DNA from: Elusimicrobiota bacterium
GTDB taxonomy: Bacteria; Elusimicrobiota; Elusimicrobia; UBA1565; UBA9628
Assembly: GCA_016212855.1 (NCBI GenBank)
Contig: JACRDP010000009.1
Coordinates: forward strand, 89,275-153,274
Reading direction: 5' to 3'
DNA length: 64,000 nucleotides
Shown here: piece after piece, positions 12,206-59,314 of the stretch
Layout: the number at the start of each line of letters is the position of its first letter
Numbering within the stretch: position 1 is the stretch's first letter
Notes under the pieces: model-generated
Database searches by the model: none
Seen by the model: only the letters and a program-made list of their open reading frames with translations
What the model was told of the DNA's origin: nothing
Program-made: the position numbers and the translations under genes

Positions 12206-12212
12206 TTTCCCT

Positions 12213-13489: not shown

Positions 13490-13563
13490 GCGCTTTACCG
13501 AACTTTTGCCCCGGCTTCACCGAATTATATCCAGCCTGTAATACCCTTTCGCCGCTCCGGGTC

Positions 13564-13569: not shown

Positions 13570-13575
13570 GCGGGT

Positions 13576-15052: not shown

Positions 15053-15142
15053 TTTATCACCTTGACCGTGCCGCCGTCAGCGCCGTCCGGCCCATAGGCC
15101 GGACGGCAAAAGACCCACCTTGCGCGCCCCGCGAAAACCGTT

Positions 15143-15148
15143 TAAACT
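15143..15148 (+). promoter_or_regulatory. -10-like hexamer TAAACT, 6 nt upstream of ATG 15155 (leaderless-type arrangement)
   Basis: TAAACT gcgggc ATGAG with no SD. Confidence 0.4.
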
Positions 15149-15154
15149 GCGGGC

Positions 15155-16255: not shown

Positions 16256-16294
16256 GGCTTGACTCGGCCCTTACGCTATGGGACCATTGGGCCT

Positions 16295-33434: not shown

Positions 33435-34328
33435 TTGGCCACCCACAAAGCCGGCTTCGTCGCGCTCGCCGGGCGCCCCAACGTCGGGAAATCGACCCTG
33501 CTGAACTCCTTGCTCAAGTTCAAGCTGTCGATCGTCTCGCACAAGCCCCAGACCACGCGCCACCGCCTGCTCGGCATCCTCGAAGGCGAGGACTTCCAGG
33601 CCTGCTTCCTCGACACCCCCGGCCTCATCGACGCGCCGTCCGACCAGCTGCAGAAAGCCCTGCGCAACGAGACGACGCGCGCGCTGCGTGACGACTCCGA
33701 CCTGATCGTGTATATGGTCGACGCGGTCGAGGCGAACCCGGAGAAGGTGGGCGAGACGCACCTGCGCTCCGGCACGCCGGTCCTGCTCGTGATCAACAAG
33801 TGCGACCGCGACGTCGCCGAGACCAAGCTCGCCGCGATCGAGAAGGCGTACTCGGCCGCGCTCAATCCCGAGAAGATATTCCGCATCTCCGCCCTCAAGA
33901 ACCAGGGCGTCGAGGAGCTCAAGACCGAGATCCTCTCCCGCCTGCCGGAGAGCGAGGCCTTCTACGACAAAGGCCAGATGTCGGACCGCTGGGAGCGCTT
34001 CTTCGCCGCCGAGATCGTCCGAGAGCAGGTTTTCGACTTGTACCACGATGAGATTCCCCACGCCGTCGCCGTCGTCGTGGAAACCTTCCGCGAGCATCCC
34101 GGCAAGCAGCCCGACGAGGTGTTCGCCACGCTCTACGTCGAGCGCGACGGCCAGAAAGGCATCATCATCGGCAAGGGCGGCAAGGACCTCCACCGCCTGA
34201 CCGAGCGCTCGCAGGCGATGCTCGAGGCCTTCCTCGGCCGCCAGGTCCAACTTGAGCTGTGGATCAAGGTGCGCAAAGACTGGCGCAAGGATCCGAAGTC
34301 GCTGGCCGAGTTCGGCTACACGACCTAG
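33435..34328 (+). CDS. era: GTPase Era
   Basis: GFVALAGRPNVGKSTLLN (G1), DTPG, NKCD, C-terminal KH domain. Confidence 0.9.
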   Translation: MATHKAGFVALAGRPNVGKSTLLNSLLKFKLSIVSHKPQTTRHRLLGILEGEDFQACFLDTPGLIDAPSDQLQKALRNETTRALRDDSDLIVYMVDAVEANPEKVGETHLRSGTPVLLVINKCDRDVAETKLAAIEKAYSAALNPEKIFRISALKNQGVEELKTEILSRLPESEAFYDKGQMSDRWERFFAAEIVREQVFDLYHDEIPHAVAVVVETFREHPGKQPDEVFATLYVERDGQKGIIIGKGGKDLHRLTERSQAMLEAFLGRQVQLELWIKVRKDWRKDPKSLAEFGYTT

Positions 34329-34378
34329 CCGCGACGGCGTTGGCCGAATCAGGCCGGATATCGTACTATCTCCCCCGC

Positions 34379-36352
34379 ATGAAGAAGACTAAGCCCAAAG
34401 TGAAGCCCGCCGCGCCCAAAGAGGCCGCCGCGCCTAAACCCCGCGCCGAGAAGCCTCGCCACATCGGCAAGACCGCCGACGAGATGGGCAAGCAGCAGCG
34501 CGAGATCTCGGTCTCCGAATTTTTCACCAAGAACCGCCACCTGCTCGGCTTCGACAATCCGCGCAAGGCCCTGCTCACCTGCGTGAAGGAAGCCGTCGAC
34601 AACGCGCTCGACGCGTCGGAAGAAGCCGGCATCCTCCCCGAGATCGTCGTCAAGCTCGTCGCGGTCACCCCGGACGGCAAACCCGCGCCGGTCGTCTCGC
34701 AGGCCACGCGCTTCCAGGTCACCATCATCGACTACGGCCCCGGCATCGTCCGCGACCAGATCCCGAAGATTTTCGCCAAGCTCCTGTACGGCTCGAAGTT
34801 CCACCGCCTGCGCATGAGCCGCGGCCAGCAGGGCATCGGCATTTCAGCGGCCGGGATGTACGGTCAATTAACGACGGGCAAGCCGGTCAAGATCATCTCC
34901 CGCACCGGCGAAAAGCAGCCCGCGCACTACTTCGAGGTGCAGATCGACTCGAAGAAGAACGAGCCGATCATCCTCGAGAAGAAGCAGATCGAGTGGGAGG
35001 CCCACCGCGGCACCCAGGTGACCATCGAGCTCGAGGGCAAGTACGTGAAAGGCCGCGCCTCGGTCGACGAGTACATGGAGCTCTCGGCCATCTCCAATCC
35101 GCACGCGTCCTTCACCTACCACGCGCCCGACGGTGAGACCAAGACCTACCCGCGCACGATCCAGCACAACCCCGATCCGCCCAAGGAGATCAAGCCGCAT
35201 CCGTACGGCATCGAGCTCGGCATGCTCCTCAAGATGCTCCAGGACACCAAGAGCCACTGGCTCGCCGGCTTCCTGTCGGCCGACTTCTCCCGCGTGTCGA
35301 CCGAGACCGCGACGGAGATCTGCAAGGCCGCGGGCGTATCTCCTAAGAAACGTCCGCGCGATGTCGTTGGGCAGGAAGCGGAGAAGCTGTTCCAGACCAT
35401 CCAGGCCACCAAGCTGATGGCGCCTCCCACGAACTGCCTCTCGCCCATCGGCGAGAAGGAGATCTTGGCCGGCCTGTTCAAGCAGATCAAGGGCGATTTT
35501 TATACGGCGGTGAGCCGCCCTCCCGCGGTCTATCGCGGCAATCCTTTCATCATCGAGGCCGGCCTCGCCTGGGGCCGCGGACCGGAGCAGGCGGCGCTCG
35601 ACGCGCTCAACGCGCAGAAGGCCCCGCTCGCCGAGGGCGAGAGCCACGGAGGCGACGACAACGAGCTGGCGCGCGTGATGCGCTTCGCCAACCGCGTTCC
35701 CCTCCTTTATCAGCAGTCCGCGTGCTCGACCTTCAAGGCCGTGCTCGACACGACCTGGAAGAACTACGGCATCGCGCAGTCGCGCGGAGCGCCCCCCGCG
35801 GGCCCCATGGTCGTGTTCGTCCACATGGCCTCGGTCTGGGTTCCGTTCACGAGCGAGTCGAAGGAGGCCATCGCCGACTACGACGAGATCCGCAAGGAGA
35901 TCACCCTCGCCTTGCGCGAGGCCGGACGGCGCCTGGGCGTGTTCATCAAGCGCCGGGCCCGAGCCCACGCCGAGAGCAAGCGCCGCGACATCTTCGAGCT
36001 GTACATCGAGGAAGTGGTGGGCGCCTGCTCCCGCCTCAAGGGCGGCAAGCTCGCCGCGACCAAGCTCAAGACTCAGCTCACCGAGATCGCCAAGAAGATC
36101 ACCGGCGGCCAGAAGACAGATGAGATGCTCGACAAGAACGCGGGCCCGCACGGCCTGCCGCACTCGATCATCGTGACGGCCGAAGGCATCGAGGGCGAAG
36201 TGCCCGTCGAAGGCCCCGTCGCCGTGACCGAGGCCGCCCCGGCCGCCGTCGAGGCCGCCCCGGAACCGGAAAAGCCCGTGAAGAAGGCGAAAAAGGCCAA
36301 GGCGAAGTCGAAGAAGAAGGCCAAGCCCGCGAAGAAGAGCAGGAAAAAATAA
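34379..36352 (+). CDS. top6B: type IIB DNA topoisomerase VI subunit B, with Lys/Ala/Pro-rich N- and C-terminal tails
   Basis: I start at ATG 34379. ..SVSEFFTKNRHLLGFDNPRKALLTCVKEAVDNALDA.. (GHKL Bergerat N-box), DYGPGI, SRGQQGIG. Tails: MKKTKPKVKPAAPKEAAAPKP.. and ..KPVKKAKKAKAKSKKKAKPAKKSRKK. Confidence 0.85.
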   Translation: MKKTKPKVKPAAPKEAAAPKPRAEKPRHIGKTADEMGKQQREISVSEFFTKNRHLLGFDNPRKALLTCVKEAVDNALDASEEAGILPEIVVKLVAVTPDGKPAPVVSQATRFQVTIIDYGPGIVRDQIPKIFAKLLYGSKFHRLRMSRGQQGIGISAAGMYGQLTTGKPVKIISRTGEKQPAHYFEVQIDSKKNEPIILEKKQIEWEAHRGTQVTIELEGKYVKGRASVDEYMELSAISNPHASFTYHAPDGETKTYPRTIQHNPDPPKEIKPHPYGIELGMLLKMLQDTKSHWLAGFLSADFSRVSTETATEICKAAGVSPKKRPRDVVGQEAEKLFQTIQATKLMAPPTNCLSPIGEKEILAGLFKQIKGDFYTAVSRPPAVYRGNPFIIEAGLAWGRGPEQAALDALNAQKAPLAEGESHGGDDNELARVMRFANRVPLLYQQSACSTFKAVLDTTWKNYGIAQSRGAPPAGPMVVFVHMASVWVPFTSESKEAIADYDEIRKEITLALREAGRRLGVFIKRRARAHAESKRRDIFELYIEEVVGACSRLKGGKLAATKLKTQLTEIAKKITGGQKTDEMLDKNAGPHGLPHSIIVTAEGIEGEVPVEGPVAVTEAAPAAVEAAPEPEKPVKKAKKAKAKSKKKAKPAKKSRKK

Positions 36353-36357
36353 CGACC

Positions 36358-37452
36358 ATGGCCAAAAGACATCCCGAAGTCGAAAAAAAGCTCGTCGGCT
36401 TGGCCGATCTCGTCATCGACGCGGCCGCGCGCCGCAAGGACCCCGCGATCTCGATCCCCGTGCGCTCGCTGTCGAACGTCAAGTTCAACGAGAAGAAGGG
36501 CTTCATCGAGATGGGCAAGAACAAGCAGATGCGCACGTTCTTCAACGTCGGCATGGCCAAGAAGTTCATGCAGACCATGCTCGTCGCCGACGCGCTCAAC
36601 GAGCTGCAGAAGGCCGACCTGACGACCAGCCTCCGCGAAATTTACTACCGCACGAAGCACACGATGGGCGATTCGCACGAGAACACCTTCGACGACCAGG
36701 CCGAGTCCGATCCGGTCATCGAGGACCTCGAGGTCGGCCTCGCCGCCCTGCGCGAGGAGTTCCACGTCCGCGCCGAAAACGCCGGCACGATCATCGGCCC
36801 GGTCGTGTTCGAGGATGACGGCGACAAGGTGGACTGCGCCAAGCTCGGCAAGGGCGGCTACTCCGTGCCCTCCATCGTCGAGGAAGAGTACCTCAAGATC
36901 AAGAAGTGCACCGCCGACTTCGTCCTGCTCATCGAGAAGGGAACGCAGTGGAACCGCCTCGCCGAGGACAAGTTCTGGAAGAAGTACAACTGCATCCTGC
37001 TCACCGGCAACGGCCAGCCGCCGCGCGGCGTACGGCGCCTGGCGCGCCGCCTCAATGAAGAGAAGAAGCTCCCCGTCTACGTGCTCGTCGACAACGACCC
37101 GTGGGGGTACTACATCTACTCCGTCGTCAAGCAGGGCTCGATCAACCTCGCCTTCGAGAGCCAGCGCATGGCGATCCCGACGGCGAAATTCATCGGACTC
37201 TCCTCGCTCGATCCCGAGCATTACGCCCTGCCGCGCAACGTCGGCATCAAGCTCAACGACAAGGACATCAGCCGCGCCAAGGAGTTGATGGCCTACCCGT
37301 GGTTCCAGAAGAAGGAGTGGCAGGTCGAAATCTCACGCATGCTCAAGAGCGGCCTCAAGTACGAATTGGACGCGCTCGCGAACAAGGACTTCCAGTACCT
37401 GACCAAGACCTATCTTCCGAAGAAGCTCAAAGAGAAGGACTGGCTGGACTGA
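36358..37452 (+). CDS. top6A: type IIB DNA topoisomerase VI subunit A (Spo11-like)
   Basis: ..SLREIYYRTK.. (catalytic Tyr region), Toprim LLIEKGTQWNRL and VLVDNDPWGYYI. Confidence 0.85.
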   Translation: MAKRHPEVEKKLVGLADLVIDAAARRKDPAISIPVRSLSNVKFNEKKGFIEMGKNKQMRTFFNVGMAKKFMQTMLVADALNELQKADLTTSLREIYYRTKHTMGDSHENTFDDQAESDPVIEDLEVGLAALREEFHVRAENAGTIIGPVVFEDDGDKVDCAKLGKGGYSVPSIVEEEYLKIKKCTADFVLLIEKGTQWNRLAEDKFWKKYNCILLTGNGQPPRGVRRLARRLNEEKKLPVYVLVDNDPWGYYIYSVVKQGSINLAFESQRMAIPTAKFIGLSSLDPEHYALPRNVGIKLNDKDISRAKELMAYPWFQKKEWQVEISRMLKSGLKYELDALANKDFQYLTKTYLPKKLKEKDWLD

Positions 37453-42805: not shown

Positions 42806-43824
42806 GAGGCGTCATCTACCACGGTCCGCGCGACATCCGCCTGGAAGAGATATCGACACCGACGCCCGGAACGGGCGAGGTGGTCGTCAAGCTCGGCGCG
42901 GCGCTGACCTGCGGCACCGATTTCAAAGCCTACCGCCAAGGCCACCCGGTCCTGCTCGGCTCGTACCCCTCCCCGTTCGGCCACGAGCTCGCAGGCACGG
43001 TCTTCGCCGTCGGCAAGGGCGTGGCGACGGCCAAGGAGGGCGACCGCGTCGTCGTCGCCAACTCCGCGCCGATGGACGACTGCTTCTGGTGCACGAACGG
43101 CCAGAACCACCTGTGCCCCGCGCTCAAGCTGCACAACGGCGCCTACGCGGAGTACGACCTCGTGCCCGCGCATATCGTCAAGCACAACCTCCACCACCTG
43201 AAGTCGTCGGTTCCGTTCTCGGTCGGCGCGATGGCCGAGCCTTTCTCGACGACGATCCACGCCGCCGAGATCATGGGAGTGCGCGCGGGCGACACCGCCG
43301 TGATCATCGGCGCCGGACCGATGGCCATCATGCTCATTCATGCCCTGCGCGCCCGCGGCGCCCGGGTCGCCGTACTGGGGCGCTCGCGGGAGAACCTGCT
43401 CTCGACGCGCGCGGCCGGTGCGGACCGGTCCTTCAGCTCCCTCGACGGGCCCGTCGCGGACGCCCTCAAAAGCTGGGCCGGCGAACGCGGCCCCGATCAC
43501 GTCTTCGAGGCCGTGGGCAAGTCCGAGACCCACCTCCTGGCCCTGGAAATCGTCCGCCCCGGCGGCAAGATCTGCCTGTTCGGCGGCTGCGCGCCGGGGA
43601 CCACGGTCCCGCTCGACGTGCACCGCATCCACTACAAGCAGATCGCGATCCACGGCGTGTTCCATCACACCCCGCCGCATTTCAAGGAGGCCGTACGCCT
43701 GCTCTCCGAGGGCAAGGTCAAGACCGAGCTTCTGATCCAAGGGTGCGTGAAGCTCGCGGATCTCCCGGCTTTCTTCTTCACCAACGCGGACAAATCCATC
43801 CCCAAGTGCGTGGTGACCCCGTGA
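42802..43824 (+). CDS. zinc-dependent alcohol/polyol dehydrogenase (MDR family), second copy
   Basis: I start at ATG 42802 (ATGA overlap). CGTDF, GHELAGTVFAVG, CFWCTNGQNHLC, GAGPMA. Confidence 0.8.
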   Translation: MRGVIYHGPRDIRLEEISTPTPGTGEVVVKLGAALTCGTDFKAYRQGHPVLLGSYPSPFGHELAGTVFAVGKGVATAKEGDRVVVANSAPMDDCFWCTNGQNHLCPALKLHNGAYAEYDLVPAHIVKHNLHHLKSSVPFSVGAMAEPFSTTIHAAEIMGVRAGDTAVIIGAGPMAIMLIHALRARGARVAVLGRSRENLLSTRAAGADRSFSSLDGPVADALKSWAGERGPDHVFEAVGKSETHLLALEIVRPGGKICLFGGCAPGTTVPLDVHRIHYKQIAIHGVFHHTPPHFKEAVRLLSEGKVKTELLIQGCVKLADLPAFFFTNADKSIPKCVVTP

Positions 43825-44783
43825 GCCTCGACCTCGCCTTCGCGCTCGCCCGCCGCGTGAATCCGCGCGAGACCAGCCCGAATCCGCGAGTGGGCTGCGT
43901 CCTCGTCAAAGACGGCCGCACGGTCGGCCAGGGCGTCCATCACGGCTACGGCAAGCCCCACGCCGAACCGGTCGCGCTCCAGAAGGCCGGCGCGCGCACC
44001 CGGGGCGCCGTCGCCTACGTCACGATGGAGCCCTGCGCCCCCTTCGCGGGCAAGCGCAACCCGTCCTGCGCCGAGGCCCTCATCGCCGCGGGCGTGCGCA
44101 AGGTCGTCTGCGCCACGCTCGACCCGAACCCGAAGGTCGCCGGCCGCGGCCTCGCCCTCCTGCGCCGCGCCGGAATCAAGACCTCGGTCCAGCCCGATTA
44201 CGCCGCCGCCGGAGCGCTCCTCAACCGCGGGTTCTTTTCCGTCATGCGCCGCCGCCGGCCCTGGGTGGTCCTCAAAACCGCGCTCTCGCTCGACGGCAAG
44301 GCCGCCGCGACGAATGGGAAGTCACGCTGGGTCACCGGCAAGCCCGCGCGTAACGCGGTCCATGCGTTGCGCGCCCAATATGACGCTATTTTAGTGGGCG
44401 CCGGCACGGTGCTCGCCGACAATCCCGCGCTCACGTCCCACGGCGCCGGCAAGAATCCTCTCCGGGTCGTGCTCGCCGGGCGCCGCTCCTTGTCCAAGCG
44501 CGCCAAGGTCTTCGACTCCTCCGCGCCCACCGTCGTGTACCGCAAGATGGCTCTGCGCGCAATCCTCAAGGACCTGGCCAGGCGCGGCGTCGGGACGCTT
44601 CTCGTCGAGGGCGGGCCGACGATTCACGCCGCTTTTTTGAAAGCCGGCCTGGTCGACGAGGCGAAGGTGTTCCTCGCGCCCAAACTCTTGTCCGGCTCGC
44701 TCGATCCGAACACGGCGCCTCGGCTCAAAACGCCGAAGGTCACCAAACTCGGAGACGACTGGCTCATCGAGGGCGCGCTATGA
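43821..44783 (+). CDS. ribD: bifunctional riboflavin biosynthesis deaminase/reductase
   Basis: I start at GTG 43821 (GTGA overlap). NPRVGCVLV, HAEPVAL, TMEPC..C, then reductase ..LKTALSLDGK... Confidence 0.85.
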   Translation: MSLDLAFALARRVNPRETSPNPRVGCVLVKDGRTVGQGVHHGYGKPHAEPVALQKAGARTRGAVAYVTMEPCAPFAGKRNPSCAEALIAAGVRKVVCATLDPNPKVAGRGLALLRRAGIKTSVQPDYAAAGALLNRGFFSVMRRRRPWVVLKTALSLDGKAAATNGKSRWVTGKPARNAVHALRAQYDAILVGAGTVLADNPALTSHGAGKNPLRVVLAGRRSLSKRAKVFDSSAPTVVYRKMALRAILKDLARRGVGTLLVEGGPTIHAAFLKAGLVDEAKVFLAPKLLSGSLDPNTAPRLKTPKVTKLGDDWLIEGAL

Positions 44784-44813
44784 CGACCCGGGGAACGACC
44801 TTCTCCCTTTCAA

Positions 44814-44838
44814 TCTATGTCTGTTTATATAGACATAT
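44814..44838. promoter_or_regulatory. 25-nt inverted-repeat motif TCTATGTCTGTTTATATAGACATAT between ribD and ribE (candidate operator/promoter)
   Basis: 21/25 nt identical to 62645-62669. ATGTCT..AGACAT arms flank an AT-rich centre. It is an AT-rich island in a GC-rich context, 50 nt upstream of the ribE start. Confidence 0.45.
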
Positions 44839-44888
44839 CGCGGCCACCCATACCCTTCGCCCCGACCTCCGCGGGAGCAATTAACGTC

Positions 44889-45476
44889 ATGTTCACCGGC
44901 ATCATCAATCATCTGGGAACCGTCAAGAAACGAACGGCCACGGCATTGGTGATCTCCGCTAAAATTCCCAAGCCCAAACTGGGAGCTTCCATCGCGGTTA
45001 ACGGAACGTGCCTGACCGTCGTGAAGACGAAGGGCGGCGAGCATTCCTTCGACGTCGGGCCGGATACCTGGAAGCGGACCAATTTGGGTGCGCTCAGGCC
45101 CGGCCAGCAGGTCAACGTGGAGCCTTCGCTGAAGCTCGGTCAAGAAATCGGAGGGCATTTCGTCTCCGGGCACGTCGATGCGACCGGCGAAATCGTGTCG
45201 CTTGAGCCTTGGGGCCAAGATTTTTATCGCCTGCGCGTCGAGCTACCCAAGGCCCTGACCGGGCTCGTCGCGGTGAAGGGTTCGATCGCGATCGACGGGA
45301 TCAGCCTGACGGTCACGGCCGTCAACGCGGAGGATTTCGAGGTCATGCTCGTCCCCCACACTTTGCGCCACACGAACCTCGGGAAGCGCGGAACAGACGA
45401 CCGCGTCAATCTCGAGGTCGATCCGCTCGCGCGCTACGCGATGACGGCGGCGTCGGCATTGAGGAGCAAGAAATGA
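44889..45476 (+). CDS. ribE: riboflavin synthase (alpha chain)
   Basis: The canonical N-terminus [10 protein letters not shown] begins at ATG 44889, so track start 44817 is rejected. Internal duplication (..NGTCLTV.. / ..DGISLTV..). Confidence 0.85.
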
Positions 45477-46714
45477 GGGCCGCGAAGGGTTTTGACCGGA
45501 TCGAAGACGCGATCGCCGACATACGCAAGGGAAAGATGATCGTCGTCGTGGACGATCCCAACCGCGAGAACGAGGGCGACGTCGTCATCGCCGCGGAAAA
45601 ATGCGGCGTCGCCGCCGTCAATTTCATGGCGGTCCACGCGCGCGGCCTCATCTGCGTGCCCCTGCCCGCCTCGCGCCTCGAGACGCTCAAGCTTCAGTCC
45701 ATGACCGACGCCTCCGACTCCCTCGGCGCCGTGCCGGGCAAGGACACCGCCTTCACCATCTCGGTCGACGTCAAGCGCGGCACCACCACGGGCATCTCGG
45801 CCCGCGACCGCGCCCTCACGATCAAGGCGCTGACCCACCCGCGCACGCGCCCCGAGGACCTGGGGCGCCCCGGCCACATTTTTCCGCTCAAGGCCAAAGA
45901 AGGCGGCGTACTCGTGCGCGCCGGACACACCGAGGCCGCGGTCGACCTGGCCCGCCTCGCGGGCCTGACCCCCGCCGGCGTCATCTGCGAGATCCTCAAC
46001 GCCGACGGCAGCATGTCGCGCACCCCGCAGTTGAAGACGTTCGCCAAGAAGCACAAGTTGCGCATCGTGACCATCGCCGACCTCATCGAGTACCGCCGCC
46101 GCAAGGACCGTCTCGTCGAGCGCAAGGCCAGCGCCAAGCTCCCCACGAAATACGGCGACTTCACCATTCGCGTCTACGAAGAAGCCCTCACCGGCAAGGT
46201 CCATCTCGCCATGGTCAAAGGCGCGGTCTCCGGCGCCAAGCGCGTGCTCGTGCGCGTGCATTCCTCCTGCGTGACCGGAGACGCCCTTTTTTCCGCGAAG
46301 TGCGACTGCGGCGTCCAGCTCGACGCGGCGCTCAAGCAGATCGCCCACGCCAAGAAGGGCGTCCTCGTCTACCTTAACCAGGAAGGCCGCGGGATCGGGC
46401 TCATCAACAAGATCAAGGCTTACGCCCTCCAGGACAAGGGCCTCGACACCGTCGAGGCCAACTTGGCGCTCGGCCTCAAGCCGGACCTGCGCGAGTACGG
46501 CATCGGCGCGCAGATCTTGGCCGACCAGGGCCTCACCTCGATCCGCATCCTCACCAACAACCCGCGCAAGATCGTCGGCATCGAGGGCTACGGCCTGACT
46601 GTCGCCGAGCGCGTCCATCTGCAGATTCCGTCCACCAGACACACCGCCGGCTATCTGCGGACCAAGCGCGAGAAAATGGGACACTTGTTGACCGTGCCGG
46701 AGGAGATCAGATGA
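45473..46714 (+). CDS. ribBA: bifunctional 3,4-dihydroxy-2-butanone-4-phosphate synthase / GTP cyclohydrolase II
   Basis: I start at ATG 45473 (ATGA overlap). ..[10 protein letters not shown].., ..[12 protein letters not shown].., then ..[11 protein letters not shown].. and ..NQEGRGIGL... Confidence 0.9.
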
Positions 46715-47145
46715 AGCGAGTCGCCATCGTCAAATCGCGGTTCAACGAGGAAGTGACCTCGCGCCTGCTCGCGAGCTGCCTGAAGACCTTCAAGTCCGAG
46801 GGCTGGAGCGACTCCCAGCTCAAGGTCGTCGAGGTTCCCGGCGGCTGGGAGATCCCCTGGGCCGCCCAGGAACTCGCCAAGACGAACCTCTATCAGGCGG
46901 TCGTCGCTTTAGGCTGCGTCATGAAGGGCCAGACCCCGCAGAACGACCACCTCTCACGCTCCCTCATGCAGAGCCTGCACCGCATCTCGCTCGAAACGCG
47001 CGTGCCGATCGTGCTCGGGGTCATCACCCCGAACAACGAGAAGCAGGCCCTCGCGCGCACCAAGGGCAAGATGGACCGCGGCCATGAAGCCGCGCTCGCC
47101 GCGCTCGAGATGATCGCGCTCCGGGAGGAGCTGCGTGGGACGTAG
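46711..47145 (+). CDS. ribH: 6,7-dimethyl-8-ribityllumazine synthase
   Basis: ..[11 protein letters not shown].., [10 protein letters not shown], ..[10 protein letters not shown].., ..PIVLGVIT... Confidence 0.85.
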
Positions 47146-47584
47146 AAGACTCGCCCGCGAGATCGCCCTCCAGGCCCTGTACGTGGCCGACGTCGCGCAC
47201 ACCCCCGCGGCGGAGGCCTTCGCCATCGTCACCCGGCGCGAAGGAGAAGAAGCCGACGCCGAGACCCTCGCCTTCGCGCGCGAGCTGGCCCTCGGCGCCA
47301 TCGAGCGCGTGGAAAAGCTCGACGCCACGATCCAAGAGCAGGCCGCGAACTGGTCGATGGCGCGCATGGCCGCGGTGGACCGCAACGTCCTGCGCCTGGC
47401 CGCCTACGAGCTCGAAGCCCGCCTCGACACGCCCGTCGGCGTGATCATCGACGAGGCCATCGAGATCGTCCGCAAGTATTCCACCGAGGAAGCGACCCGC
47501 TTCATCAACGGCATTTTGGACTCGCTGAAGCGGCTCCGCGACGGTAAGCCGAAAGCCAAGAAGAAGTCGCCCCCGAAGGAATAG
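47135..47584 (+). CDS. nusB: transcription antitermination factor NusB
   Basis: [13 protein letters not shown].., ..VDRNVLRLAAYEL.., ..VIIDEAIEIVRKY.., ..FINGILD... Confidence 0.85.
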   Translation: MGRRRLAREIALQALYVADVAHTPAAEAFAIVTRREGEEADAETLAFARELALGAIERVEKLDATIQEQAANWSMARMAAVDRNVLRLAAYELEARLDTPVGVIIDEAIEIVRKYSTEEATRFINGILDSLKRLRDGKPKAKKKSPPKE

Positions 47585-51156
<3,572 letters not shown>

Positions 51157-51188
51157 GCGCCGCCCTTGACGCCCCGGCGCCTCCCCGC

Positions 51189-51194
51189 TACACT
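51189..51194 (+). promoter_or_regulatory. -10-like hexamer TACACT, 8 nt upstream of ATG 51203
   Basis: TACACT gtcgcggt ATG with no SD. Confidence 0.3.
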
Positions 51195-51202
51195 GTCGCG
51201 GT

Positions 51203-51667
51203 ATGCAGCGAGAATCCACCGTCGTCCGGCTCCGCATCACGAGCGCGACTTTGACCGCCGCCCAGATCGAGGCCGCGCTCGGCATCAAGCCCGACGAATC
51301 CTGGAAGATCGGAGACCGCACCGGCACCTTCGGCGCGCTCCTCAAGGAGCACGGCTACGTGCTCGACTCGACCGCGATGATGACGACCAATCCCGCGGAC
51401 CACTTCCGCTCCCTGCTCAAGCGCATCGCCCCGGTGGCCCAGAAGATCGGCGAGCTCTCCGCCCAGGCGAAGGTCGAGGTCGTCTGCTCGATCATCAGCA
51501 AGCACATCCCCCCCGTGGGCTTCGAGCGCGACGACCTGCGCTGGCTCGCGGCGATGGGCGCCAAGCTCGACGTGGAGATCTCGATTCTCGTCGACCGCTC
51601 GGCCGCTCAGGCCGCGCCCACGGAGAAGAAGCCCGGCGACAAGGAAGGGCCCGCCAAGGTGTTCTGA
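51203..51667 (+). CDS. DUF4279-like small protein
   Basis: ..VRLRITSATLTAAQIEAALGIKPDESWKIGD.. and ..LRWLAAMGAKLDVEI.. match my recollection of the DUF4279 layout. Confidence 0.5.
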   Translation: MQRESTVVRLRITSATLTAAQIEAALGIKPDESWKIGDRTGTFGALLKEHGYVLDSTAMMTTNPADHFRSLLKRIAPVAQKIGELSAQAKVEVVCSIISKHIPPVGFERDDLRWLAAMGAKLDVEISILVDRSAAQAAPTEKKPGDKEGPAKVF

Positions 51668-53001: not shown

Positions 53002-53445
53002 ATGAAGATTCTCTTGATGCTGGCGCTGCTGGCCGGAAACGCCGGGGCCAAGAAGGCGCCCCAGGGCATGACGCGTTTCAACGAGACGTGCCCGGTCGCC
53101 CGGCTACTGCCGGTCCTGGAGGACGACTACGCGGCTTGCTCGAAGAAGGAAAAGACCGCCTGCGACGGCTTCGTCTCCGGCTTGCGCGAGTTGCTCCCGG
53201 AATACGACTGCCAGCGCCCGTTCGACGCCGGCCCGCCGGACGACTACATCGTTCCGGCGATCTGGAAGGCGGGCGACGCAGCCCTCGCGAAATACGTCGC
53301 GCTTCTGGCGAGCCTCAAGACGAAAAAGGCGCTCGAGCTGTTCGCCAGCCCGGAGTTTCGGGCCATCTTGGACGGCCATTTGGCCGAAACCTACATGGAA
53401 CGTTCGAGGGCCGCGCAGAAGCGGCTGAAGGTCAGGCGACCTTGA
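53002..53445 (+). CDS. secreted hypothetical protein (4 Cys)
   Basis: Signal MKILLMLALLAGNAGA. No motif recognised. Its 3' end overlaps the convergent rSAM-1 gene by 14 nt. Confidence 0.4.
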   Translation: MKILLMLALLAGNAGAKKAPQGMTRFNETCPVARLLPVLEDDYAACSKKEKTACDGFVSGLRELLPEYDCQRPFDAGPPDDYIVPAIWKAGDAALAKYVALLASLKTKKALELFASPEFRAILDGHLAETYMERSRAAQKRLKVRRP

Positions 53446-54394
53446 TGTCCCAGCACTCGTTGGCGTGCTTGAGCAGGTCGGTCTCGGTCTGAGCGCGGCG
53501 CACGAACTTCTGCACTTCTTCCGACTTCCAGGCGGCGCCGACCTTGGGCCAGGCTGAGGCCAGGCTTTCCTTCTTCAGGTCGGCCACGGCGAACGGCAGC
53601 GCGTTCAGAAGCTTGGCGCGGCCGTTGGGCACGACGAGCACCATGCTTTGAGGGCTCTCGGCGCGGGTGACCATCTCCTGCTGGATGCCCCACGGGTAGA
53701 TCGCGAGCTTGGGCCCCTTGAGGGCGGCGGCCGCGACCTTGAGGCTCATCACGGCGTCCTTCCACTGCTCGTCGGTCGCCGCGAGCGAGTCCCAGGCATG
53801 CGCGGCCCGCCCTAATCGCATCATGGGCCCGGTGACGAAGGTTCGCACACCTCGCTTGGCGGCCTGCTCGTACACGCTGACCGCGTCATTGACATTAATT
53901 TTCGTTGGAATAAAAACGAGTTCAGGTTCGAGCCCGCGCTTAACAAGGCGGTCGATCGCCGCCCAAGCGGGGGCGTAACCAGAGCCCGGCCTGAGCCGTT
54001 CGTGGATTTCCCCGGTGGCGCCGTCGATCGAAATCTGGACACATGCGATTTTGAGTTCCTTCAATTTGTCGCATGCGGCGTCGTCGAGATCCAGTCCGTT
54101 CGTCTCGATCTTGATCTCGACGCCGCCTTTCGTGAGGGTCTCGAAAATCTCGATGGCCCAGGGCGAGCCCATCGGTTCCCCGCCGCCGAAGGCGACGTAC
54201 GCGATCCCGTTTGAAACGATTTGGCGGGTTAAATTTAATGCCTGCTCGCGGTTCATCTCGTCGGGCCACGCCTTGTCCGGCCCCGACTCCTCGCAGCAAT
54301 GCAGGCAGCGCCCCGTGCAGCGGTTGCTCAGCTGCCAGGCAAGAAAGAGGGGGGCGCCGTAGTCGCCCACGGACGCCCCCCTCCGGTCCGGCAT
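53432..54394 (-). CDS. radical SAM enzyme, paralog 1 (PqqE/SPASM-superfamily-like core, Cys-free C-terminal domain)
   Basis: CTGRCLHC (CxxxCxxC), GGGEP, ETNG, SIDG. No Cys downstream of the core. ATG 54394 lies 1 nt after the stop of the 39-aa ORF. Confidence 0.8.
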   Translation of the reverse strand: MPDRRGASVGDYGAPLFLAWQLSNRCTGRCLHCCEESGPDKAWPDEMNREQALNLTRQIVSNGIAYVAFGGGEPMGSPWAIEIFETLTKGGVEIKIETNGLDLDDAACDKLKELKIACVQISIDGATGEIHERLRPGSGYAPAWAAIDRLVKRGLEPELVFIPTKINVNDAVSVYEQAAKRGVRTFVTGPMMRLGRAAHAWDSLAATDEQWKDAVMSLKVAAAALKGPKLAIYPWGIQQEMVTRAESPQSMVLVVPNGRAKLLNALPFAVADLKKESLASAWPKVGAAWKSEEVQKFVRRAQTETDLLKHANECWDIKVA

Positions 54395-54395: not shown

Positions 54396-54515
54396 TTACG
54401 TGAACCGGATGTAAGGCTGGGCCATCACGCGCTCGGAAACTTCCTCCAAAGAGGGCGTCTCCCAAGCGAGCTTCGGCTCGGCCTTCGCATCGGTCACGGT
54501 TTTCTGGTCGTTCAT
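54396..54515 (-). CDS. 39-aa candidate precursor peptide (not in the supplied ORF track): MNDQKTVTDAKAEPKLAWETPSLEEVSERVMAQPYIRFT
   Basis: My own reverse-complement translation: ATG at 54515-54513, TAA at 54398-54396. AAGAGGA lies 4 nt upstream, 11 nt after the rSAM-2 stop. Wedged between two rSAM genes in an operon that also has a PqqD-like protein. W-x-x-P...EEV resembles PqqA-type leaders. Confidence 0.55.
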   Translation of the reverse strand: MNDQKTVTDAKAEPKLAWETPSLEEVSERVMAQPYIRFT

Positions 54516-54526
54516 GTGTCCTCTTT

Positions 54527-55486
54527 TCACCGGCTGACCATCGCCGGCAAATCTTGTTCCAGCTCCGTCCATTCATTCGCGCGGGCCGACCGCTTCGGGT
54601 CGGCCGCCAGCAGCGCCAGCGCCTCGCGCACCTGCGCCGTGGCCCACGCGGCTTTGTACGACTCCCACGCGGCGAGGAAATCTTGCGTTTTAAGGTCGGC
54701 GCACGTAAAGGGCAGCGGGGCGGCGACCTTCACCTTCCCGTCGGGAAGGATCAACAACGTGCCGGAAGGCTGCAAAGCCCGGTGCGCCATCTCCTCGCGC
54801 AGCGAGAAGGGTTTGTAGCACAGCTCCATGCGTCCGGCCAGTTCGCGCTCCTTGCGCTCTAAAACGCGCAGGAAGGCCGCGTAATCGGCCTTGGACGGCT
54901 CGAGCCGGTCCCATAGCTTCGCCGCGGTGCCAAGACGCATGAGCTCACCGGTGTTGAACCGGAAAGCGCCCAGAGACAAGGCTAGATCGATCACGGCTTC
55001 GGCTTCGAAAATATTGAGGCGCGTCGGCGCAAAAGTGATTTCAAGAGGCAGGCCCGCGGCTACGACGCCCCGGCAGGCTGTTATGGCCCGGTCGAGATCA
55101 CCATTGATCCGTTGCCGTCCGTACACCGCCTGAGACGCGCCATCCAGCGAGATCTGAACCGATCTAATCCCGAGACCCTTCACCGAATCCACATCGAAAT
55201 TGTTGCCGTTCGTTTCGACCTTGAGGAGCACCCCTCCGTCCGAAAGTGTTCGGCACACCTCGGCGAAATGCGGCACAAGCGTCGGCTCCCCGCCCACGAT
55301 CATCGCGTACGGCACTCCCGCGGCGACGATCTCGCGCGAGAGCTTGAGCGCCTGCTCCCGCGTGAGTTCCCCCGCCAACGCTTTGCCCGGCGCGGAGTCG
55401 GTGCAGCAATGGAGGCAGGCCAGGTCGCAGTCCCTGGTGAGCTGCCAGGTGACCATGGTCGGGGCGGCGAATTGTTCGATCTTCAT
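54527..55486 (-). CDS. radical SAM enzyme, paralog 2 (Cys-poor C-terminal domain)
   Basis: CDLACLHC, VGGEP, ETNG, SLDG. Only 2 Cys after the core (..ELCYKPF.., ..PFTCADL..). ATGA overlap with the prenyltransferase gene. Confidence 0.8.
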   Translation of the reverse strand: MKIEQFAAPTMVTWQLTRDCDLACLHCCTDSAPGKALAGELTREQALKLSREIVAAGVPYAMIVGGEPTLVPHFAEVCRTLSDGGVLLKVETNGNNFDVDSVKGLGIRSVQISLDGASQAVYGRQRINGDLDRAITACRGVVAAGLPLEITFAPTRLNIFEAEAVIDLALSLGAFRFNTGELMRLGTAAKLWDRLEPSKADYAAFLRVLERKERELAGRMELCYKPFSLREEMAHRALQPSGTLLILPDGKVKVAAPLPFTCADLKTQDFLAAWESYKAAWATAQVREALALLAADPKRSARANEWTELEQDLPAMVSR

Positions 55487-56400
55487 TTAGAGATCGCCGT
55501 AAACACGGCGAATAAAAAAGTGGTCAGCGCGTAGCACTGCACAATGGCGCGAATGGCGGGCATGAACAGTCGCGGCGTATCCCACGTGGTGGCGCCGGCA
55601 CGTAAAGAAATAATCCAAAGCGGGACTCCGGCGGCCGCGGCAAGAAGGGTCAACGAAGGGAACAGGCCCGTCGCAACCCCGAGCGGGATCGTCAGCAGCC
55701 CCAGCGCGGACATGGCCAGGTAGAGATACCTTCCGTTTTTGCGCCCGAGCCGAACGACCAGATTTTTCTTGCCCACCAGACGATCCTGATGAAAGTCCGG
55801 AATGTTGTTCACCGTCGCCAGCGCGGTGATCAAAAGCCCCGGCACGAGCGAGGCCAGCAAGGCCGCCCACGAAAAACGATGGGTGTGAAGATGCAGGGAC
55901 CCTAAAACCATCCACGGACCATAAGAGAGGCCGATGACGGTTTCGCCGAGCCCGCGATAAACCCAACGAATCGGGGGTCCCACATACCACACCGCCGCGG
56001 CGCCGCCCAGCAACGTATAGAGAACGATAGGCCAGCCGCCCTGCCAGGCGAGATAGAAACCGATGGACGCGGCCACGGCGAAGGCCGTCACGCCGAGCGA
56101 GAACATCCATTCGGGAATATATTCCTCGGCATCGGGATTGAAGACGCGGTCGGTGCCCATCTTGGCGTCGTAGTACTCGTTGAATGATTCAACGCCGATA
56201 ACCGACAAGAATATCCCGAACAGCCCCAACAGAAAAACGCTTCCGTTAAACGTCTTCTCCACCCCATACGCCCACGCTCCGCCCAGGAAGTAGGGCAGAA
56301 GCCCCGCGTACAGGAAGAACCTGTAGCGCACGACCGAGGCGACCTTCATGACGATGGTCTGCTCGGCCGGCGCGTGCGGGGCGGCGAAGACGTCGCTCAT
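55483..56400 (-). CDS. UbiA-superfamily aromatic prenyltransferase, MenA-like
   Basis: I start at ATG 56400 (ATGA overlap). FNEYYDAKMGTD (compare MenA NDYxDxxxGxD), YVGPPIRWVYRGLGETVIGLSYGP, NNIPDFHQDRLVGKKNLVVRLG (compare MenA NNxRDxxxDxxxGKxTLxVRLG). Multi-TM. Confidence 0.8.
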   Translation of the reverse strand: MSDVFAAPHAPAEQTIVMKVASVVRYRFFLYAGLLPYFLGGAWAYGVEKTFNGSVFLLGLFGIFLSVIGVESFNEYYDAKMGTDRVFNPDAEEYIPEWMFSLGVTAFAVAASIGFYLAWQGGWPIVLYTLLGGAAAVWYVGPPIRWVYRGLGETVIGLSYGPWMVLGSLHLHTHRFSWAALLASLVPGLLITALATVNNIPDFHQDRLVGKKNLVVRLGRKNGRYLYLAMSALGLLTIPLGVATGLFPSLTLLAAAAGVPLWIISLRAGATTWDTPRLFMPAIRAIVQCYALTTFLFAVFTAISK

Positions 56401-57353
56401 GCGGCTCCGACCTCCTCCCACTGATGCAGGCGGGAGACGATGTTGGGATCTTCGGCCAAGCGGTCGATGAAGGCCGACACGCGCGGGCTCTGCCAGGCCT
56501 TCTGGAACTGAGCCCAGACCTGGCCGAGCGTCTGCAGGCGCAGGTCGCCGCAGGTGAATGGAAGCGCGTTGATGAGCTTGACCTTGCCGTTGGGCAGGAT
56601 GATGAACAAAGCGGCGGGATTGATCAGGCGGTAGCGCAGCTCCTCGAGGAGCCCCATCTCATGGTAGTACACGCGCATCTTGCCCTTGTACTGCTCGGTT
56701 TTCTTGGCGAGCGTCGCGAAGAACTCCGGGTAGTCCGCCTCGTCGGGGGCGGTGATGCCCCAGGTGCGCACCGCGTTGCCGGTGAACATCAGCTTGCCGG
56801 TGTAGAAGGAGTAGGCGCCGATCTCGTAAGCGAGATCGACCGCGGCGCCGATCTCCTTGATGTTGAACCGGGCCGGGACGAAGTTGATCTCGATCGGAAC
56901 GCCCGCCTCGCGGAGGTTCTTGATGCCGTTGAGGGCTTCCTCGAAGCGGCCGTGCACGCGCATCTTGTTGAAGGAGGCGGTGGACGCGCCGTCGAGCGAG
57001 ACCTGCACGGCCTTCACGCCGAGATCCTTGAAGCGCTTGCAGTTCTCCTTGGTGAGGTAGTGGCCGTTGGTCTCGATCTTCAGGCCCACGCCGCCCTTGG
57101 TGATGCGTTCGACCATCGGGAAGAAGTCGGGGCGGACCATGGGCTCGCCGCCGGAGAAGGAGACGTACGGGACCTCGCTTTTCACGAGTTGGTCGATGAT
57201 GCCCATCGCCTGCTCGGTGGTCAGCTCGTCCTTGAAGGCCTTACCCGGGCCGCTTTCCTCGATGCAATGCAGGCAGGCGAGGTTGCACTCGTTGGTGATC
57301 TGCCACGCCACGTACAGCGGCGCCCCGAGGTCCGACGTCTGTTGGTCTTCCAT
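56397..57353 (-). CDS. radical SAM enzyme, paralog 3 (Cys-poor C-terminal domain)
   Basis: CNLACLHC, SGGEP, ETNG, SLDG. A single Cys after the core (..PFTCGDL..). Confidence 0.85.
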   Translation of the reverse strand: MEDQQTSDLGAPLYVAWQITNECNLACLHCIEESGPGKAFKDELTTEQAMGIIDQLVKSEVPYVSFSGGEPMVRPDFFPMVERITKGGVGLKIETNGHYLTKENCKRFKDLGVKAVQVSLDGASTASFNKMRVHGRFEEALNGIKNLREAGVPIEINFVPARFNIKEIGAAVDLAYEIGAYSFYTGKLMFTGNAVRTWGITAPDEADYPEFFATLAKKTEQYKGKMRVYYHEMGLLEELRYRLINPAALFIILPNGKVKLINALPFTCGDLRLQTLGQVWAQFQKAWQSPRVSAFIDRLAEDPNIVSRLHQWEEVGAA

Positions 57354-57358: not shown

Positions 57359-57799
57359 TTACTCGACGATCAATCCTTTTTCCTTCAGCTGAGCGAGGAA
57401 CGTCTCGGCCTCCGTCGCCATCTTGCCGGTCGGGTCTTCGAACTTCTCCTTGAGCTTGGCGACGAGGTTGGACGACTCGGCGCCCGCGATGACCTCGCGC
57501 ACGACGGCCGCGCCGGTGGGGCTCAAAGTGTAGACCTTCTCGGAGCGCGTCTCGAACAGGACCGCGCCGAACTTCTCTTCACGGAATTTGACGAACGGGG
57601 CGAGTTTCATGATTCCCTCTCTATGGGCGACGAGGCAGGAGTTGGCGTCCCAGACCTCGCGCGCCGCGATCTCTTCCATCTCACGTCTGACCTTCAGAAT
57701 GCTGGCCGTGTCCGCCGCGTCGGCCTGAACGGCTTCGGTTTCAGAGACGACGAAGTCTCCGCTCTTCCACGACTTTCGGAGCAGGGCTTCGTACGACAT
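57359..57799 (-). CDS. PqqD-like (RRE-type) peptide-chaperone domain protein, 146 aa
   Basis: The C-terminal ~85 aa (FREEKFGAVLFETRSEKVYTLSPTGAAVVREVIAGAESSNLVAKLKEKFEDPTGKMATEAETFLAQLKEKGLIV) follow the PqqD strand-strand-strand then three-helix pattern. The N-terminal ~60 aa are unassigned. Confidence 0.6.
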   Translation of the reverse strand: MSYEALLRKSWKSGDFVVSETEAVQADAADTASILKVRREMEEIAAREVWDANSCLVAHREGIMKLAPFVKFREEKFGAVLFETRSEKVYTLSPTGAAVVREVIAGAESSNLVAKLKEKFEDPTGKMATEAETFLAQLKEKGLIVE

Positions 57800-58767: not shown

Positions 58768-59262
58768 TCAGGCCATCGTCTTTAAGACGGCAAGCACCTT
58801 CGGCATGACCGTGCTCCGTTCCTGCCGCGCCAGGCGGCCCAGGACGGAGTCCACCGTCTTCACGAGCTCCAACAGCTCCGAAATCTTCTTGTTGAAGCGG
58901 GGATCACCCGACTCCTTGAGACACTCCTCCAAGGCGACGATCACCGGCTCGATTTCCCGCTTCTTGCGCTCGCGCGCGATGCGGCAGCCCATGCTCCAGA
59001 TGTCCTGGTCGGCCTGGAAGTACTCGCGCCGCTCCGAACCGACCGAGACGCGCCGGATCAGCCCCCAATCGACCAGAGCACGAAGGTTCATGTTGGCGTT
59101 GCCCCGCGAAATCTCCAGACGCTCCATGATCTCGTCCGTGGACAGGGCCGCGTCGGCGGCTATGAGGAGTGCATGGATACGCGCCATCGTCTTATTGATG
59201 CCCCAGCACGAGGCCATCTCCCCCCAGGTGCGGACGAATTTGTCCTTGGCGTTATCTTTCAT
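58768..59262 (-). CDS. GbsR/MarR-family winged-helix transcriptional regulator
   Basis: I start at ATG 59262 (MKDNAKDKFVRTWGEMASCWGINKTMARIHALL..STDEIMERLEISRGNANMNLRALVDWGLI). An AT-rich promoter-like region lies at 59263-59314. 21 nt upstream of the polyprenyl synthase gene. Confidence 0.7.
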   Translation of the reverse strand: MKDNAKDKFVRTWGEMASCWGINKTMARIHALLIAADAALSTDEIMERLEISRGNANMNLRALVDWGLIRRVSVGSERREYFQADQDIWSMGCRIARERKKREIEPVIVALEECLKESGDPRFNKKISELLELVKTVDSVLGRLARQERSTVMPKVLAVLKTMA

Positions 59263-59314
59263 ATATTTCTGAAAGTATGATACATGATGAAACACTTGGG
59301 GTCAAGACCCAGAA

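Follow-up and report, generated by a model that had tools for sequence, protein, structure and literature searches.

What is encoded in the narrow gap between two radical S-adenosylmethionine (rSAM) genes of an Elusimicrobiota bacterium, and what might its product become? The window analysed here is a stretch of 64,000 nt from contig JACRDP010000009.1 (GenBank assembly GCA_016212855.1). In this gap it carries an open reading frame (ORF) of 39 codons, which a first-pass annotation, made from the letters alone, had proposed as a peptide with a PqqA-like leader. When this ORF was compared with related loci, the reading that we came to favour, and consider reasonably likely, was that it encodes the ribosomal precursor of a polyprenylated, cofactor-like peptide made by ribosomes and modified after translation (a RiPP) from an uncharacterised pathway. 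It is very probable that the peptide is translated and serves as the precursor, or substrate, of a system made of a PqqD-domain protein and rSAM enzymes. It is fairly probable that the UbiA-superfamily prenyltransferase of the same cluster acts on a moiety derived from the peptide, and a cofactor-like function in the membrane is proposed tentatively.

The peptide gene and its conservation

The reverse complement of positions 54396-54515 (minus strand) reads ATG AAC GAC ... TTC ACG TAA and is translated to MNDQKTVTDAKAEPKLAWETPSLEEVSERVMAQPYIRFT, i.e. 39 codons followed by a TAA at 54396-54398. The stop codon of the upstream gene, rSAM-2, is located at 54527-54529 and is followed by an 11-nt spacer (AAAGAGGACAC) before the peptide ATG. 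Within this spacer, the Shine-Dalgarno-like sequence AAGAGGA (54519-54525, minus strand) has its last base at -4 from the ATG, with three spacer bases left. On the other side, one base separates the peptide TAA from the ATG of rSAM-1 (54394). The ORF, its translation, both gaps and the AAGAGGA had all been given by the first-pass annotation, and every one of these factual statements was found to be correct. Its term "unannotated" holds for the supplied gene track only, as public pipelines do list the ORF: the identical 39-mer was found in 316 blocks of a public collection, on well over 100 contigs, and was always labelled "hypothetical protein". A longer in-frame ORF of 58 aa (ATG at 54572, overlapping rSAM-2) was rejected as the true start because the homologues begin at the Met of MND or MSE, which is the Met of the 39-aa form. 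A Shine-Dalgarno-like motif (AGGAG, GGAG or GAGG) was present upstream of the start in 68 of the 72 related loci.

When 62 different DNA versions of the final 22 codons were compared, the C-terminal decapeptide V30-T39 (VMAQPYIRFT; 54399-54428, minus strand) showed no amino acid change. The synonymous codons used numbered three for V30, four each for A32 and P34, two for I36, three for R37, two for F38 and three for T39. Since the variation in this core was only synonymous, the codon pattern, as read from the sequences, is one of purifying selection at the protein level, not of conserved RNA or DNA. W18, P21, E24 and V26 were also fixed in the 62 unique sequences, and position 25 was always E or D. 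The core pattern occurred once in the window and in none of 100 shuffles.

A filter-free profile search over 1.84 billion representatives yielded 99 representative clusters (50 % identity) at E≤1e-3, of which 59 had E≤1e-10, and the peptide search gave 131 clusters at 90 % identity. In a scan of one genome per species, a relative was encoded in 307 genomes. The hosts belong to Elusimicrobiota and to Alpha-, Beta- and Gammaproteobacteria and include the cultured species Rhodopila globiformis. Taxon labels are those of the submitters of the metagenome-assembled genomes (MAGs), and some are evidently wrong. For example, two loci are labelled "Candidatus Endomicrobium trichonymphae" (L010) and "Bordetella parapertussis" (L073), which are implausible organism names; the proteins of their clusters are similar to ones from groundwater Elusimicrobiota and from Burkholderiales MAGs, respectively. 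Together with the selection on the core and the conserved Shine-Dalgarno motif, the homologues in 307 genomes bear out a genuine, translated small gene.

Members of the family are 30 to ~78 aa long, and all variation in length and sequence is N-terminal. Two elements are fixed. The first is W-x-x-P-x-[LMIV]-x-[DE]-V, the sole part of the leader conserved throughout the family, and the second is MAQP[Y/F]IRFT at the C-terminus, a kernel that follows V, I or L. The first-pass annotation had suggested aligning homologues to see whether its W..P..EEV segment and the tail are kept, and both are. In distant members the core varies by V30I/L, Y35F and rare single-sequence changes, and by no others. 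Phe35 was found in at least four representative clusters (P0317, P0323, P0331 and P0332) and in the metagenome loci L096-L099. At position 28, close relatives have E, D or Q, and distant ones have Gly or Gln. From the variation at Glu28 and the change of Tyr35 to Phe, it follows that neither Glu28 nor a phenolic OH is universally required. In the window peptide, the leader region (residues 1-29; 54429-54515, minus strand) has an N-terminal part that is variable in length and sequence in the alignment, and it contains the motif W18-E-T-P21-S-L-E-E25-V26 (54438-54464, minus strand), the proposed recognition element for a PqqD or RiPP recognition element (RRE) domain. A variable N-terminus with a fixed motif and tail is the anatomy of a leader plus a core, and the proposal of a precursor peptide is borne out to this extent.

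No curated family (NCBIfam and Pfam, E≤10) matched the peptide other than through sub-threshold PqqA and MftA matches, and no copy was found in the plasmid database. Three further matches were discarded. Clusters P0329 and P0333 (profile E-values of ~1e-5 to 1e-6) are long repeat proteins, with ARVLAQPFRLENIS and PPSMEDLGERVH repeats, and were regarded as chance or low-complexity matches and not as family members. The sole match in a PDB profile search with the peptide alignment was a repeat in a PsaD fusion, again by chance.

The gene cluster and its enzymes

The operon lies on the minus strand in the order MarR-type regulator, polyprenyl diphosphate synthase, PqqD-domain protein, rSAM-3, UbiA-superfamily prenyltransferase, rSAM-2, peptide and rSAM-1. 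Greedy ORF calling often chose antisense ORFs in high-GC loci, and therefore tblastn synteny and the gene calls of the collection were used instead. Synteny was analysed over 80 related loci, 54 of which had enough flanking sequence, and the order PqqD-rSAM-3-UbiA-rSAM-2-peptide-rSAM-1 was observed in 53 of these 54. The first-pass annotation had thus been right to call the position between two rSAM genes deliberate. Across loci the cluster enzymes diverge down to 50-60 % identity and the peptide core stays invariant. A PqqD-type protein was present in all complete loci. The cultured alphaproteobacterium R. globiformis (GCA_002937115.1, contig NHRY01000224.1) has the same six genes, with the peptide MNDMVVETTKAAETVQAKKQKSDLPFWETPKLEDVSEQVMAQPYIRFT.

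A second, simpler order, peptide-PqqD-rSAM-UbiA, was found in L089, L096 and L097 (Phe35) and in L101 (Tyr35), and in L097 the four-gene module is located amid unrelated flanking genes. Two independent gene orders with the same four functions are strong evidence for a functional unit. A rule by which Tyr would go with three rSAMs and Phe with one was dropped, as IMAQPYIRFT peptides also occur in the peptide-PqqD-rSAM-UbiA order. The linkage of the gene to PqqD, rSAM and UbiA partners is strict, and it stands with the reality of the gene, the selection on its protein, its leader and core and the family features of the enzymes as what was observed. The operon had been described earlier with its rSAM and PqqD-like genes; the UbiA-family prenyltransferase, which is integral and universally linked, had been overlooked.

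No conserved protease, ABC exporter or immunity gene was found in the cluster at the loci examined. An ORF of 91 aa between rSAM-1 and PPK2 (53104-53379, minus strand) was rejected as a cluster member and is probably spurious; it is not called in relatives, where PPK2 comes immediately after rSAM-1, and has no family match. PPK2, the upstream aminotransferase and the riboflavin operon were not accepted as parts of the system either, as they are syntenic in Elusimicrobiota only and absent from the proteobacterial loci examined.

Single loci depart from the common arrangement. In one MAG (L051, 10214-11716) a Fic/DOC-domain gene (500 aa) lies between the peptide gene and rSAM-1, so the tight junction of these two genes can be broken. 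L054 (3596-4653) is the only adequately flanked locus with peptide and rSAM-1 that has none of PqqD, rSAM-3, UbiA and rSAM-2 upstream, and it may be a rearrangement or a mis-assembly. The cluster genes of L082 (6782-11155) are fragmented (e.g. an rSAM of 229 aa plus 83 aa, and ORFs without a Pfam match), which looks like frameshift errors of a long-read assembly rather than decay. Finally, in the simple Phe-type cluster of L089, UbiA is followed by a gene for a membrane protein with a lysylphosphatidylglycerol-synthase-TM domain (PF03706; 2869-3981).

The PqqD-domain protein (146 aa; 57359-57799, minus strand) matched Pfam PF05402 with 40.4 bits against a cut-off of 23.4, and the earlier statement that a PqqD-like protein is encoded in the same operon is confirmed. 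The RRE-type peptide chaperone domain comprises residues 64-146. The N-terminal extension is absent from the proteobacterial versions (83-115 aa). The protein scored below the cut-off of every NCBIfam chaperone model (lasso, MftB and PqqD), and its sole sequence relative in the PDB was the lasso-peptide RRE TfuB1. In the June 2026 release of NCBIfam every match of the other cluster proteins was likewise below its curated cut-off, and the Pfam matches were at superfamily level only.

The three rSAMs, rSAM-1 (320 aa; 53432-54394), rSAM-2 (319 aa; 54527-55486) and rSAM-3 (318 aa; 56397-57353), all on the minus strand, are mutual paralogues with 35-41 % identity, and rSAM-2 shares 38-41 % with the other two. 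The two that flank the peptide matched PF04055 with E-values of 1e-24 and 5e-15, and the single rSAM of the simple clusters is most similar to rSAM-3. The CxxxCxxC motif (C26/C30/C33 in rSAM-1, C20/C24/C27 in rSAM-2 and C23/C27/C30 in rSAM-3) was invariant in all three paralogues (64-71 sequences). Further conserved Cys residues are C34 and C314 in rSAM-1, C28, C138, C223 and C262 in rSAM-2, and C105 and the invariant C268 in rSAM-3. Because the C-terminal domain retains only one or two conserved Cys, the ligand sets of SPASM/twitch auxiliary clusters are absent, as is already seen in rSAM-1; no Pfam SPASM match was obtained for the rSAMs. Their best NCBIfam matches (MftC, AhbD/NirJ, SkfB and PqqE) were all far below cut-off and covered the N-terminal ~220 residues only. 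When the AlphaFold2 model of rSAM-1 (pLDDT 90.9) was compared using Foldseek, the best structural matches were the SkfB/SuiB-type maturases (SkfB 6efn, E-value 1e-16, TM-score 0.72 over 300 columns; SuiB 5v1t, 5e-13), with PqqE at 2e-12. In the PDB sequence search with the rSAM, SkfB was again the best match and PqqE was among the relatives. However, in SkfB and SuiB the RRE is an N-terminal fusion, whereas here it is a separate protein, and the C-terminal domain here is unable to hold a twitch/SPASM cluster in the known way. A fourth rSAM protein of the window (369 aa; 29825-30934), encoded directly upstream of a PIN-PhoH gene on the minus strand (28527-30934 for the pair), is unrelated in position to the peptide cluster.

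The prenyltransferase (PF01040) is MenA/UBIAD1-like. Its maximal ORF (312 aa; 55483-56421, minus strand) starts with GTG at 56421 and overlaps rSAM-3 by 25 nt. In the relatives L083-L085, the gene calls for UbiA give 304-305 aa, and its start overlaps the rSAM-3 stop by 4 nt (ATGA). Given this shared overlap, the true start is probably the ATG at 56400, which would couple the translation of rSAM-3 and UbiA. The best NCBIfam matches were MenA models (6.9e-31), and UBIAD1 was both the sole PDB sequence match and the top Foldseek match (TM-score 0.69). Both Asp-rich motifs, including the G-x-D extension, are present (N81-x-Y-x-D85-x3-G89-x-D91 and N205-x3-D209-x3-D213), with N81, D85, G89, D91, N205, D209 and D213 conserved at 97 % or more, and N-x-Y-Y-D-x3-G-x-D and N-N-x2-D-x3-D align with UBIAD1. 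The enzyme differs from MenA in that its score is far below the equivalog cut-off (NF004751, 107.9 bits against 264), its gene lies between rSAM genes and near a precursor peptide, and no men or mqn genes were found at any locus examined. Homologues are 73-85 % identical among Rhodopila, Acidocella and Burkholderiales-type MAGs, and are named "prenyltransferase" (NCBI) or "1,4-dihydroxy-2-naphthoate octaprenyltransferase" (JGI) in public pipelines.

Two genes at the head of the operon belong to the Elusimicrobiota loci only. The polyprenyl diphosphate synthase (315 aa; PF00348; 57799-58746, minus strand) was adjacent in 47 of 57 loci, but one Elusimicrobia MAG and each of the nine proteobacterial loci had no such gene beside the cluster. 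Its best NCBIfam match was a model for the polyprenyl-transferase cargo of family 2 encapsulins, closely followed by heptaprenyl, solanesyl and octaprenyl diphosphate synthases. Ala and Ser are found at -5 and -4 before the first DDxxD; given how chain length is set in such enzymes, small residues at these positions suggest a long-chain product, and the enzyme probably makes a long chain. The MarR/ArsR-type regulator (58768-59295, minus strand), which only some of the Elusimicrobiota loci have, matched Pfam MarR_2 and HTH_20.

The proposed product and its rivals

Beyond these observations, we infer leader binding, modification chemistry, the target of prenylation and a physiological role. The PqqD/RRE protein would bind the W-x-x-P-x-hydrophobic-x-[D/E]-V leader and present the (V)MAQP[Y/F]IRFT core to the rSAMs. 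The core would next be altered through H-atom abstraction by rSAM-3, joined in this window by rSAM-2 and rSAM-1. One plausible reaction is C-C crosslinking of the PqqE kind at the aromatic residue 35, as the interchange of Y and F favours a C-C crosslink to the ring (as in PqqE and cyclophane-forming enzymes) over phenol chemistry. The MenA/UBIAD1-like enzyme would attach a long polyprenyl chain to the core, once modified, or to a fragment of it, and in Elusimicrobiota this chain would be supplied by the operon's own polyprenyl diphosphate synthase. The product would be a membrane-anchored, peptide-derived molecule that stays in the membrane. As the core is invariant across phyla, is present in one copy and has no protease, exporter or immunity gene with it, the system resembles that of a housekeeping cofactor, such as PQQ (pyrroloquinoline quinone) or mycofactocin, and not that of an antibiotic.

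Some of the genomic neighbourhoods give a clue to the role. The neighbours are housekeeping genes in Elusimicrobiota (PPK2, purH, DNA ligase and the riboflavin operon) and in R. globiformis (rpoD and dnaG). In a gammaproteobacterial MAG (L072), a complete MtrC/MtrA/MtrB(PioB)-type conduit lies on one side of the cluster and FdhE with an Fdh-N-like FdnGHI on the other (1180-6824 and 10983-16837 of that locus flank the cluster). In L081, the cluster is located between SdhCAB with DctPQM and DsbB with HemN. In L073, L077, L079 and L082 a Crp/FNR regulator gene has the cluster directly upstream, and Frd/Sdh subunits and malic enzyme are encoded close by. Such respiratory enzymes use low-potential quinones in model organisms. 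Combined with a MenA-like enzyme and with rSAM chemistry that is sensitive to oxygen, these neighbours suggest, as a hypothesis, a role in anaerobic membrane electron transport. In its strongest form the system would be an oxygen-independent route to a new membrane electron carrier, with a redox head group made by rSAMs from the core and polyprenylated by the MenA-like enzyme; we regard this as doubtful. It is equally a doubtful step to see in the carrier an analogue of menaquinone for low-potential anaerobic respiration. An electron carrier would explain the Frd/Sdh, Fdh-N, MtrCAB, DsbB and Crp/FNR neighbours in Beta- and Gammaproteobacteria, and it would also explain the dedicated long-chain polyprenyl diphosphate synthase in Elusimicrobiota.

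Several points weigh against a polyprenylated, cofactor-like product or its use in respiration. The modification chemistry, the binding and the product are all matters of inference, and we know of no UbiA-superfamily enzyme that acts on a peptide. The similarity to PqqA stays below the family thresholds: Pfam PqqA (PF08042) matched 3 of 37 members with a best E-value of 0.13, and NCBIfam PqqA (TIGR02107) gave no match to the peptide at E≤10. One simple locus, L091, has peptide, PqqD and rSAM without an adjacent UbiA. The simple clusters have one rSAM each, and in some of them Phe replaces Tyr, which makes it unlikely that all clusters yield a Tyr-derived quinone; moreover, one rSAM and one prenyltransferase offer few tools for building a redox head group. 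The respiratory context is limited to a handful of proteobacterial MAG loci. Finally, R. globiformis makes MK-9 (a menaquinone), UQ-9 (a ubiquinone) and rhodoquinone (PMC12542754), and therefore the cluster product is not the sole lipoquinone there.

Among the other explanations, the one that survives best takes the peptide as an accessory or scaffold held by PqqD (an assembly factor, carrier or regulator), with the rSAMs and the MenA-like enzyme acting on a non-peptide quinone or lipid. The type of the UbiA enzyme speaks for it, as the known substrates of MenA and UBIAD1 are small naphthoquinols. So does the absence from the rSAMs of the auxiliary clusters that are typical of peptide-modifying SPASM/twitch enzymes, and the best NCBIfam matches of rSAM-3 are AhbD and NirJ, which are tetrapyrrole enzymes. 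In addition, the cluster holds no protease that could free a head group. However, PqqD/RRE domains are known as leader-binding modules of RiPP pathways, a variable leader in front of a C-terminal decapeptide that never changes is what marks a substrate, and the structures closest to rSAM-1 are peptide maturases. The minimal peptide-PqqD-rSAM module of L091, which has no adjoining UbiA, also fits a peptide substrate better. We consider the scaffold unlikely.

It is also quite unlikely that the peptide matures into a lipidated RiPP that is secreted or active on membranes (an antibiotic, a signal or a surfactant-like lipopeptide) instead of a cofactor. Most characterised rSAM/RRE clusters yield bioactive peptides, prenylated RiPPs exist (ComX and the cyanobactins), and a MarR regulator stands at the head of the operon in Elusimicrobiota. 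The core, however, is invariant over at least two phyla and 307 species genomes, whereas antibiotic cores are hypervariable. There is a single copy of the precursor, with no conserved exporter, leader protease or immunity gene, and the long-chain polyprenyl synthase and the MenA-type enzyme indicate a product that resides in the membrane.

The model of the first-pass annotation, in which a soluble redox cofactor like PQQ or mycofactocin is formed by Glu-Tyr or C-terminal-Tyr radical chemistry, was found to be very improbable, and yet its starting point, the leader, has substance. For comparison, four plasmid genes annotated as pqqA were used, with W3, P6, E10, G14, E16 and Y20 invariant. When the alignment of the present family was compared with theirs using hhalign, AWETPSLEEVS was paired with TWSSPIIVEVC over 11 columns (P=4.7e-4, probability 33 %). 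Aligned without gaps, the two families agree in the W and, counted from it, in P (+3), a hydrophobic (+5) and an acidic (+7) residue, V/I (+8) and an aromatic residue or Tyr (+17), so that the spacing from Trp to Tyr is identical. Both systems also have PqqD as a discrete chaperone, an rSAM whose sequence and fold are related to those of PqqE, and a core that is invariant across taxa, as a cofactor would predict. By analogy, recognition here would work as it does between PqqA and PqqD. Motif, spacing and alignment give the PqqA-like leader modest support; membership in PqqA is not supported, given sub-threshold scores and no E-x3-Y, pqqB or pqqC. The resemblance of the leaders is real, but the peptide is not a PqqA family member.

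The chemistry of the PqqA core is not matched. In M. extorquens the reactive pair of PqqA is Glu16/Tyr20, in the spacing E-x3-Y (PMC10906245). In the present family there is no such pair, the invariant Met31 occupies the position of the reactive Glu in the ungapped register, and the Tyr can be replaced by Phe. A reaction between Glu28 and Tyr35, which the first-pass annotation had in mind, is contradicted by the variation at position 28, and Tyr35 is not necessary, as several relatives with Phe keep the PqqD-rSAM-UbiA context. Neither the window operon nor the related loci were found to contain pqqB or pqqC, and PqqF is absent as well. In contrast to the PQQ system, there are one to three rSAM paralogues without SPASM Cys, together with a membrane UbiA and sometimes a polyprenyl synthase.

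Mycofactocin is the other known system that comes close: it too is a cofactor made from a peptide whose C-terminal core is conserved, and glycosylation of the product follows. MftC was the top NCBIfam match of rSAM-1 and rSAM-2, MftB was among the matches of the PqqD protein, and MftC and PqqE both belong to the top relatives of the rSAMs in NCBIfam and the PDB. All Mft scores stayed far below the equivalog cut-offs: rSAM-1 reached 95.5 bits where 265 are required, rSAM-2 reached 92.5, and the PqqD protein had 25 where 33 are required. The MftA family (PF23709) matched 1 of 37 members with an E-value of 0.11, so that for both PqqA and MftA the weak Pfam matches are at an E-value of ~0.1. The C-terminus is the invariant RFT and not GVY, and the suggested mycofactocin-like chemistry of a C-terminal Tyr is not supported. 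MftD, MftE and MftF were not found in the window operon, a SPASM domain is missing too, and the proposed decoration is a polyprenyl lipid, unlike the mycofactocin glycan. An integral membrane prenyltransferase in the module also argues against a soluble cofactor of either kind.

A second pqqA-pqqE-pqqD module was considered as well. In Hyphomicrobium denitrificans and several other proteobacteria it accompanies puuD-serC-pyrD; it shares its regulation with anaerobic and denitrification genes, and it has been proposed as an oxygen-independent cofactor route (PMC12423496). It was rejected as the present family: its partners are different (PuuD-like, SerC and PyrD, with no UbiA), and the paper regards its peptide as a second pqqA copy and gives E-x3-Y as the conserved pqqA motif (PMC12423496).

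Last, a chance ORF or an untranslated spacer between the two rSAM genes, for which the shortness of the ORF and the many spurious ORFs held by a high-GC genome might be cited, is already refuted by the codon test with its synonymous-only core substitutions, by the conserved start codon and Shine-Dalgarno motif, and by the count of 307 genomes with homologues in two different gene orders.

Other genes of the window and the meaning of the family

Beyond the cluster and PPK2, the region 43089-51667 encodes RibD, RibBA, a probable RibH with NusB, an NAD-dependent DNA ligase and a DUF4279 protein. The gene order of this region is common to L083-L085, and is lineage synteny and not a part of the system. 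Farther away, the plus strand carries topoisomerase VI subunits B and A (34259-37452; Topo-VIb_trans and TOP6A/Spo11 Toprim). Topoisomerase VI is an enzyme of archaeal/eukaryal type and is uncommon in bacteria. A fumarylacetoacetate hydrolase-family gene, followed by a gene for a protein with a homogentisate 1,2-dioxygenase N-terminal domain (19051-21272, plus strand), may be a tyrosine/homogentisate catabolic pair.

No description of the core sequence or of the gene combination (PqqD, rSAM, UbiA and peptide) was found in the literature, with subscription-only sources not covered. The rSAM-rich nitrogenase-paralogue loci of an Elusimicrobia genomics paper are a different system. As far as we found, an RRE- and rSAM-dependent, cofactor-like RiPP system that combines SPASM-less rSAM paralogues with an integral UbiA prenyltransferase has not been described.

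Few known cofactors are carved from ribosomal peptides, PQQ and mycofactocin among them, and the present family carries the hallmarks of these: a core that does not vary, PqqD as the chaperone and maturases of the rSAM type. The family is widespread (307 species-level genomes and thousands of metagenomic proteins) in hosts that are mostly uncultured, and the cultured host R. globiformis makes the hypothesis directly testable. The automatic naming of UbiA as "MenA" by JGI may mislead reconstructions of quinone biosynthesis in Elusimicrobiota and environmental proteobacteria. Even if the product were merely a polyprenylated RiPP, it would to our knowledge be the first use of a UbiA-family enzyme in RiPP maturation. 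If it were an electron carrier, no RiPP before it would have been processed by an enzyme of the UbiA superfamily, and no earlier redox cofactor soluble in lipid would have had a ribosomal origin. A redox carrier that is made from a peptide and anchored by a lipid would then open a new branch of both RiPP chemistry and the biology of respiratory quinones.

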